DNA of 64,000 nucleotides from Chitinophaga pinensis (GTDB taxonomy: Bacteria; Bacteroidota; Bacteroidia; NS11-12g; UBA955): NCBI GenBank assembly GCA_945877575.1, contig CAMDUE010000002.1:197861-261860 (forward strand), read 5' to 3'. This document shows, in pieces, positions 28,414-28,560 of this stretch; position 1 is the first letter of the stretch; every line of letters begins with the position of its first letter. The notes under the pieces were generated by a model. It did not search any database. It was not told the origin of the DNA and worked only from the letters and a program-made list of their open reading frames with translations. A program made the translations under genes and the position numbers.

Positions 28414-28560
28414 GTCTGTAGTCCGAAGTCGGAAGTCCATAGTCCGAAGTCTGTGGTTTGTGGTAGGGGGTAGATGGTAGATGGTAGATGGTAGGGGGTA
28501 GGGGGTAGATGGTAGGGGGACTATGGACTATGGACTATGGACTATGGACTATAGACTACA
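28414..28560. repeat. Composite repeat: AGTCCGAAGTC repeats + (GGTAGN)n array + (GGACTAT)5, with inverted arms GTCCATAGTCC / GGACTATGGAC
   Basis: Seen directly, upstream of the S46 peptidase start. Confidence 0.85.

Follow-up and report, generated by a model that had tools for sequence, protein, structure and literature searches.

What is the repeat that stands in front of the S46 peptidase gene in this uncultured Bacteroidota genome: a small mobile element with inverted ends, a conserved regulatory structure, or a tandem repeat that has changed in place? The question is raised by a tract at positions 28412-28558 of a 64-kb window (the whole stretch of DNA that was analysed), which is itself part of a 252-kb metagenome contig (ENA ERZ27280281, k141_1150525; MEGAHIT-style). 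The initial annotation described an array of hexamers bracketed by inverted arms and likened it to a miniature non-autonomous element. We conclude with good confidence that the feature is a hypervariable heptanucleotide tract of the class known as long simple sequence repeats (SSRs) or short tandemly repeated repetitive (STRR) sequences, and that it is one of many in this genome. The tract is not mobile, and no conserved structure or function is needed to explain it.

Twenty-one heptamers follow one another in a single register throughout the tract, and the third base of each is G. Their order is six (T/A)AGTCNN units, one TGGTTTG, eight NGGTAGN units and six NGGACTA units, which fall into three blocks:

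28412-28453, plus strand: left block, with units TAGTCTG, TAGTCCG, AAGTCGG, AAGTCCA, TAGTCCG and AAGTCTG; the inverted partner of the right block.
28454-28516, plus strand: central block, with the transitional TGGTTTG followed by eight (T/G)GGTAG(G/A) units; the loop of the predicted hairpin.
28517-28558, plus strand: right block, with GGGACTA, four TGGACTA and TAGACTA, equivalent to (GGACTAT)n with 97% matches; reverse-complementary to the left block.

All three blocks had been recognised before and are present where they were placed; it is their unit, their number and their relation to one another that differ from the earlier description. Tandem Repeats Finder assigns period 7 to every block (AGTCCGA in 4.6 copies, GGTAGNN in 8.3, and GGACTAT in 5.9 with 97% matches), and the self-identity of the tract rises to 0.79 at lag 7 and to 0.73 at lag 14, from 0.19-0.30 at other lags. 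The lag-7 peak is absent from five array-free spacers of the window. Hence, the repeating unit is a heptamer and not a hexamer, and the supposed 13 or so hexamers are about eight GGTAGNN units, which read in order TGGTAGG, GGGTAGA, TGGTAGA, TGGTAGA, TGGTAGG, GGGTAGG, GGGTAGA and TGGTAGG. Likewise, what had been taken for juxtaposed repeat elements is one tract in which three unit types share a single register of 21. The head-to-tail arrangement of 7-nt copies is that of heptanucleotide SSR or STRR-like sequences; a clustered regularly interspaced short palindromic repeat (CRISPR) array does not fit, as the 7-nt units are contiguous and have no spacers between them.

Three alleles of the focal locus were compared, namely that of the window, that of a JGI metagenome (L002) and that of a GenBank metagenome contig (L126), the last being the sole extra contig obtained from a metagenome scan with the conserved flank as query. 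The alleles differ by whole heptamers or whole blocks, and their flanks are near-identical. L126 has an identical left block, seven rather than eight GGTAG units, and four rather than six GGACTA units. L002, whose S46 protein is 98% identical and whose DNA is 93.7% identical over 4.8 kb, lacks the left block altogether; it carries nine GGTAG units in a different order, and its right block consists of about three degenerate units, after which come some 35 bp with no counterpart in the window. These patterns are consistent with tracts that would grow, shrink and homogenise in place, either by slippage during replication or by unequal exchange. A local strand switch or inversion of a GGACTAT-type unit, followed by expansion, would account for the inverted left block.

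The inverted arrangement itself is real. The 11-nt arms GTCCATAGTCC and GGACTATGGAC are exact reverse complements, and they extend to 40 nt at 80% complementarity with 67 nt in between. As DNA, the tract is predicted to fold at -24.2 kcal/mol (z -7.35 against 200 shuffles, none of which folded as well); as RNA, the plus strand folds at -59.8 kcal/mol (z -6.4) and the minus strand at -46.1 kcal/mol (z -9.2), with none of 200 shuffles as stable in either case. The proposal that inverted arms bracket the array and could form a stem-loop is therefore borne out for this allele (40-nt arms, z -6.4 to -9.2). The L002 allele, on the other hand, folds no better than its shuffles (z -1.07). Since this allele lacks the left block and folds like shuffled sequence, the hairpin is not conserved even within the species.

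Forty-nucleotide inverted arms around an array, a strong fold and many GGTAG loci within 64 kb are what would suggest a mobile element similar to a miniature inverted-repeat transposable element (MITE), with the arms as its terminal inverted repeats, recognised by a transposase, and the GGTAG loci as its dispersed copies. However, the arms, too, consist of tandem heptamers that continue the register of the core, L126 differs only by whole heptamers, and L002 is without the left arm only, its core array being still in place. The remaining evidence on this point comes from the other arrays of the window. In a lag scan, period 7 accounts for all arrays detected, at least nine in number, with periods 4-6 and 8-11 giving none. 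Altogether, about ten arrays occupy seven sites in the 64 kb, with the units GGTAGNN, GGACTAT, AGTCCNN, TACCCGA, GGGTTTY and GTACCAG. Apart from the focal tract, they are:

16335-16389, plus strand: quasi-palindromic CTACCAG/GTACCAG array in the spacer of two divergent genes, one for a DUF4143 ATPase and one for polysaccharide synthesis.
26100-26169, plus strand: GGTAGAT/GGTACAT/GGTAGGG array, flanked by the terminator hairpin of S46 and by the metallo-beta-lactamase (MBL)-fold exonuclease gene.
30565-30605, plus strand: GGTAGNN array in the ATP-dependent DNA ligase gene (29385-30905, minus strand), encoding an in-frame Pro/Ser/Thr/Tyr linker.
51634-51735, plus strand: GGTAGTT/GGTAGGG array and then GGGTTTY array in the M1 peptidase gene (49342-52548, minus strand), in an interdomain linker.
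52413-52480, plus strand: GGTAGNN array in the same M1 peptidase gene (49342-52548), directly after the signal peptide.
54310-54498, plus strand: 27 in-register heptamers filling the convergent spacer between cytidylyltransferase and NUDIX genes (10 GGTAGNN, then GGGCTCT and GGCCCAA, then about 15 (T/A)ACC(C/T)GA).

Six loci carry GGTAG-type arrays in the plus orientation (26104, 28461, 30568, 51637, 52420 and 54310). The array at 16335-16389 is their one inverted relative and the only GGTAG-like array in the opposite orientation, which brings the total to seven. The recurrence of the GGTAG theme at dispersed loci and in nearly one orientation is thus confirmed, but the count of "eight or more" is not. 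Its density is indeed far above chance: the three-unit pattern GGTAGNNGGTAGNNGGTAG has 25 matches, all on the plus strand, whereas 0.00 are expected from 100 shuffles. Four sites are intergenic (the divergent spacers at 16.3 and 28.4 kb, the tandem-gene spacer at 26.1 kb and the convergent spacer at 54.3 kb), as against three inside minus-strand genes, and the intergenic arrays cover 463 of 2799 intergenic bases, with arrays in 4 of the 11 spacers of at least 90 bp.

Nothing about these loci resembles a family of mobile copies. Flank comparison across the seven GGTAG loci revealed no shared flanks, terminal inverted repeats or target-site duplications; near-identical copies, sought within the 64 kb, and clean presence or absence were likewise not found. 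Inverted arms occur at the focal locus only, in two of its three alleles, and (GGACTAT)n is found nowhere else in the window, while the order and number of array units vary. No transposase, integrase or reverse transcriptase is present among the called genes of window 16-62 kb, and the Pfam matches of the same genes include no transposase-like match and no Y1 transposase of the repetitive extragenic palindromic (REP)-associated type (RAYT). The last point, together with the lack of a conserved 20-40 bp palindromic unit, also sets the arrays apart from REP sequences and bacterial interspersed mosaic elements (BIMEs), and an Rfam scan of the whole window gave no match to any family. The arrays share with MITEs and REP/BIME elements that they are short, in part non-coding and intergenic, dispersed and capable of forming hairpins, but they have no conserved element sequence, and they vary by unit number rather than by insertion or excision.

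Several smaller features lie beside these arrays. A 23-bp direct repeat, CCGAGTTTGGCGCTGTTTTACTT (2.9 copies, 88% matches; 16260-16325), adjoins the array at 16335-16389 upstream of the polysaccharide biosynthesis gene. The focal and ligase GGTAG arrays both have GGACT after them. The 10-mer AAGTCGGAAG occurs twice in the window, at 28426 in the focal left block and at 30534, 34 nt to the left of the ligase array. It was considered as a trace of local ectopic copying, but the ligase copy encodes the conserved FRLG motif (by hand translation), and the match is probably a coincidence.

Comparison with relatives was extended to these other sites. Strain L124, which is 98.6% identical over 23 kb, keeps arrays at both M1-peptidase sites and in the 54.3-kb spacer, with the counts and order of units changed. 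Whole-unit copy-number polymorphism between strains is thus seen at the focal locus, in L124, and in the ligase and M1 linkers. BLAST alignments with the sister species L125, at about 79-86% nucleotide identity, are interrupted at every array, and L125 lacks both M1 peptidase arrays. A tract of period 7 is nevertheless retained in its 54.3-kb spacer, with a lag-7 identity of 0.52 that none of 2000 shuffles attained; in this tract, TCACCGA units stand for the TACCCGA units of the window and units of the TGGTCTT/TAGTCTT type occupy the other side. An old tandem array undergoing concerted evolution would be expected to look like this. Further away, L003 (S46 75% identical) has five arrays of GGTTNCT or ACCAGNA units, and no arrays above the detection threshold were found in L004. 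The comparison indicates that unit types are homogenised within a tract and replaced between species. Insertion-like boundaries at homologous loci, which the initial annotation had made the touchstone of its own proposal, are not what the relatives show; they show drift in unit number and turnover of units. Arrays at one site swap their unit type between species instead of being present or absent. We therefore consider a MITE-like element extremely unlikely.

Could the arrays have been produced by metagenome assembly, through collapsed or chained low-complexity reads? Simple repeats are known trouble spots of assembly (PMC4679880), and the contig is of the MEGAHIT style. However, the arrays recur, locus for locus, in assemblies that were made independently and come from ENA, JGI, Logan and GenBank (L001, L002, L124, L126), the coding arrays keep their reading frame, and no tract exceeds 190 bp. 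An artefact deserves practically no credence. At its contig end, L002 carries nine GGGTTAC units and then GGGCTTC units (9611-9701), a repeat that probably broke the assembly there.

One array coincides with a larger difference between strains. The homology of the window with L002 extends no further than 26170/26171 (L002 6585-6640), a point flanked by the array at 26100-26169 and the S46 terminator hairpin (about 26172-26207); beyond this point lies the MBL-fold exonuclease gene in the window, as opposed to glycosyltransferases in L002. A heptamer array thus sits at a strain-specific rearrangement boundary, in a single case. Low-GC (0.29-0.36) blocks of polysaccharide and glycosyltransferase genes are present at window 1-25000, L002 889-1851 and 6648-9501, and L125 6354-9916. 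The content and position of these blocks differ among the three, as is typical of variable surface-polysaccharide islands.

By sequence arithmetic, GGTAGNN repeats place TAG in all three plus frames within three units; the focal central block has TAG in each plus frame, and none of its minus frames contains a stop codon. The complements ATCTACC, CCCTACC and AACTACC are stop-free in every frame and encode Pro/Thr/Tyr-rich peptides such as LPPTxY. It is because only this orientation is stop-free that the intragenic arrays lie in minus-strand genes. In homologue alignments, the array peptides fill unconserved linker positions at which relatives differ by exactly 7 or 21 residues. The ligase has 506 aa here and 527 aa in L002, a difference of 63 bp, or 9 units and 21 aa. 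Relatives with 97% and 86% identity have M1 peptidase linkers that are shorter by 7 aa; the array at 52413-52480 shows 7-aa variation in P0122 and is absent in P0123, the 83%-identical M1 peptidase of the sister species (locus L125), which has no array peptides. Evidently, the tracts are tolerated both in intergenic spacers and in unconserved protein linkers.

These data also bear on whether the arrays act as phase-variation switches, in which gain or loss of units would shift a frame or the spacing of a promoter and so turn genes on or off. Each 7-nt unit amounts to a +1 frame shift, and copy number is polymorphic between strains. Moreover, the MBL-fold exonuclease gene (25082-26116) takes its start codon from the array at 26100-26169: the ATG (26116) lies within an array unit, and the first residues, MYQLL, are encoded by the units ATGTACC AACTACT on the minus strand (26104-26116). 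Nevertheless, every coding-array allele seen is in frame, the differences being multiples of 21 bp (3 units, 7 aa), and no frameshifted state exists among the two to four alleles available per gene. This argues against on/off phase variation and in favour of selection on the reading frame. The genes concerned are also of the housekeeping type (ligase, M1 peptidase) and not of the surface-variation type. We regard phase variation as quite improbable.

The proteins themselves show some further peculiarities. In the ligase of this species, the peptide from the array stands in for part of the N-terminal domain, where L003 and L004 carry ordinary sequence that is about 30 aa longer. The ligase gene lies near the MBL-fold exonuclease gene, as in ligase-associated repair clusters. 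The exonuclease homologues of L003 and L004 have N-terminal extensions about 26 aa longer, and in L003 at least, this extension overlaps a heptamer array. Within the exonuclease gene of the window, a G-rich period-24 repeat (2.1 copies, 25366-25424) gives rise to a Pro/Thr/Ser-rich insertion not shared by the homologues in L003 and L004; the repeat matches the canonical G-quadruplex (G4) motif on the plus strand.

Why, then, do the GGTAG-type arrays nearly all point the same way? The GC skew of the plus strand is +0.20 overall and positive in every 2-kb bin, reaching +0.37. At third codon positions, the skew on the plus strand is +0.26 in plus-strand genes and +0.45 in minus-strand genes. As it is positive in both sets, the bias is independent of the direction of transcription. 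This G-favouring composition, together with the stop-codon constraint on the three intragenic arrays, suffices to explain the one-strand polarity, and the G-rich orientation would then follow from the strong bias of G over C and from a coding constraint that puts TAG in all three frames. In the genome collection described below, the orientation of GGTAG arrays is unrelated to local GC skew among the matches listed (55 of 117 loci, p 0.58), so the one-strand bias is specific to this genome and not a general property of the repeat.

Two further indications of a polar motif were examined and set aside. Outside the arrays, GGTAG occurs 72 times on the plus strand and 13 times on the minus strand, but G/C content alone predicts about 3.4:1; the skew is near the compositional expectation and is not independent evidence. 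Tandem GGTAGGG contains GGGTAGGG, which we take to match the E. coli GGGNAGGG motif and thus to resemble an FtsK-orienting polar sequence (KOPS). This idea was dropped, as matches outside the arrays (3 plus, 0 minus) are too few and G-rich words are all skewed here.

G-richness on one strand could also act through structure. In the known class of GGGNATC repeats of Xanthomonas and Nostoc (PMC4692102), a G4 would form on the G-rich strand and affect replication or transcription, and canonical G4 motifs are present in the window at 30579-30604, at 51690-51744 and, on the minus strand, at 54389-54440. However, there are only four such motifs in the 64 kb and none in the focal GGTAG block (28461-28516), whose G5 runs, read from the sequence, are about 23, 2 and 9 nt apart. 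The AGTCCNN, GGACTAT, GGTAGTT/GGTAGCA and GGTACAT units contain no G3 run, the GGTTNCT units of L003 cannot form G4, and a preference for four units is absent. A G4 function is thus very unlikely as an account of these arrays.

At the focal locus, the tract lies in a 251-bp divergent spacer between the S46 peptidase gene and a tacA/tacT-like toxin-antitoxin pair. The genes on either side are:

26223-28391, minus strand: S46 family serine peptidase gene (Pfam PF10459, E 2.5e-210), with the tract in its 5' upstream region.
28643-28933, plus strand: tacA-like antitoxin gene (Pfam PF08681), divergent from the S46 gene.
28914-29402, plus strand: GNAT toxin gene (GNAT Pfam matches), divergent from the S46 gene.

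A GldH gliding lipoprotein gene is also present in the region, and the nearest relatives of the window's proteins are found in uncultured Bacteroidota, with homologues of the S46 and M1 peptidases recorded in their sources under "Bacteroidota bacterium" or "Bacteroidia bacterium".

In the window and L126 alleles, the S46 start codon is 21 bp from the left end of the tract. The S46 promoter or 5' leader must therefore overlap the tract. Because Bacteroidota promoters differ, promoter elements were read by hand and a sigma-70 promoter scan was not used. Such reading yields a single promoter-like -7 box in the window allele, TAATTTTT, and L002 does not have it. Upstream of tacA, a palindrome, GTACG-N9-CGTAC (28615-28633), overlaps a Bacteroidota-type promoter-like box, TACATTTG (28631-28638). 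Both lie outside the tract and are kept in the window, L002 and L126 alleles; they are a candidate TacA operator and a candidate promoter element, respectively.

This setting invites the proposal that the tract is a selected cis-regulatory element, in which a cruciform, an mRNA 5' hairpin or sites for a heptamer-binding protein (for example, of the Csp/S1-type OB-fold) tune the expression of S46 and/or tacAT, and copy number generates heritable expression variants. The tract does lie 21 bp from a start codon within a divergent control region; arrays are carried by the above-mentioned 4 of 11 larger spacers; and a period-7 tract persists at the 54.3-kb spacer in a species that is about 85% identical. 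Effects of heptamers near start codons on expression have been proposed or partly shown in Beggiatoaceae and Nostoc (PMC4679880; bioRxiv 10.1101/2022.06.06.494920). Yet the hairpin is not conserved within the species, as the L002 fold makes clear, and the unit sequence is not conserved between loci or species, which makes a sequence-specific binder unlikely. The arrays have no consistent position, being found upstream and downstream of genes, in convergent spacers and inside genes, and the conserved promoter-like box and palindrome of tacA are outside the tract. We see selected regulation as a slim possibility. Most likely, the tract at the focal locus is a tolerated, length-variable spacer in the S46/tacAT divergent control region, with allele-dependent expression of S46 plausible as a side effect.

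Heptamer arrays of this kind are not confined to the lineage. With one genome per species scanned, the pattern (GGTAGNN)4GGTAG was found in at least 119 stretches of DNA from many phyla; the matches listed include Acidobacteriota, Bacteroidales, Saprospiraceae, Flavobacteriaceae (among them Aequorivita), many cyanobacteria, Gemmatimonadota, Betaproteobacteria, Streptomyces and others. In the 827 kb of these listed matches, there are 228 arrays at period 7 and only 2-12 at each other period. Genomes with one heptamer array therefore tend to hold more. Adjacent arrays have reverse-complement units in 11 of 55 pairs (20%), as compared to about 11% of random pairs, a modest excess in a selection-biased sample; an earlier and looser count gave 12 of 127. 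Inverted neighbours thus recur elsewhere, and the inverted-block architecture is not unique to the focal locus.

Among known systems, the closest are the STRR heptanucleotide sequences that Mazel et al. reportedly described in cyanobacteria in 1990. Like them, the arrays studied here consist of tandem 7-nt units, belong to several families per genome, are dispersed, lie in good part in non-coding DNA and vary between strains. Unlike them, they occur in Bacteroidota, have the units GGTAGNN, GGACTAT, AGTCCNN and TACCCGA, combine several unit types in one register (inverted blocks included), and also serve as in-frame gene linkers.

The survey of long SSRs with 5-11-nt units by Mrazek, Guo and Shah (2007), as relayed in PMC4679880, found heptamers to be the commonest in bacteria, and slippage was proposed. 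The likeness lies in heptamer arrays that far exceed chance length and are phylogenetically scattered. In the same account, units whose length is a multiple of three dominate coding regions, whereas here 7-nt arrays enter genes by three-unit steps in a stop-free orientation.

TAACTGA direct repeats have been described from Beggiatoaceae, cyanobacteria and five Bacteroidetes (MacGregor 2015, PMC4679880), and mixed heptamer arrays that share one spacer and are absent from close relatives from Gramella forsetii, Aequorivita sublithincola and Elizabethkingia anophelis (PMC4679880). They resemble the present arrays in being intergenic heptamers, in having stops in the "forward" orientation and a translatable "reverse" one, and in that syntenic spacers of relatives are without arrays. 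They differ in unit sequence; in addition, we see here neither a preference for positions a few nucleotides upstream of start codons nor evidence for horizontal spread.

The GGGNATC G-quadruplex heptamers characterised in Xanthomonas and Nostoc (Rehm et al. 2015, PMC4692102) are likewise G-rich SSRs found genome-wide, over-represented in non-coding DNA and variable in copy number. However, most units here have no G3 run, there is no four-unit preference, and the focal array fails the canonical G4 motif; GGGNATC repeats are also under-represented between divergent genes, where arrays occur here. A limited literature search found no paper on GGTAGNN arrays specifically or on the in-frame, three-unit behaviour in genes.

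Several points weigh against reading the tract as a tolerated SSR. Slippage is inferred from the patterns of alleles. Arms of 40 nt at 80% complementarity could mean selection for structure or protein binding, and so could a period-7 tract that has lasted across about 15% divergence at one spacer. Nor does this reading account for the preference for seven bases. The evidence base is 64 kb of this genome and a few loci from relatives. Finally, the all-plus orientation is based on only six to seven independent loci, and given this number, we do not regard polarity as a sign of a polar functional motif.

A more far-reaching alternative would turn some of these points into evidence of function. 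The heptamer tracts may be long-lived and maintained by selection, either as platforms that depend on the period but not on the sequence, to which an OB-fold single-strand-binding regulator, for instance, could bind, or as programmed sites of recombination or replication pausing, in which case the focal composite would be a strain-variable switch of S46 expression. This reading draws on the retention of site and 7-nt register while units turn over, on the share of intergenic DNA taken up by arrays (about one sixth), on at least one strain-specific rearrangement boundary near variable polysaccharide genes, and on G-rich polarity along one replication strand. We consider it doubtful, and a hypervariable, tolerated SSR tract remains the reading that we favour.

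Taken together, our results place this locus within a recognised peculiarity of some bacterial genomes: heptanucleotide tandem repeats, for which neither the seven-base preference nor a general function has been established. The uncultured, freshwater-type Bacteroidota lineage studied here is a dense and well-behaved example with natural alleles, and not a new kind of system. It shows whole units being gained and lost at a promoter-proximal site, a tract persisting at one site while its units turn over between species, and seven-base repeats colonising protein linkers in the stop-free orientation, three units at a time. It also shows that blocks of opposite orientation can arise within one register and give hairpins that resemble the ends of mobile elements, and such composites should not be labelled as MITEs in annotation.

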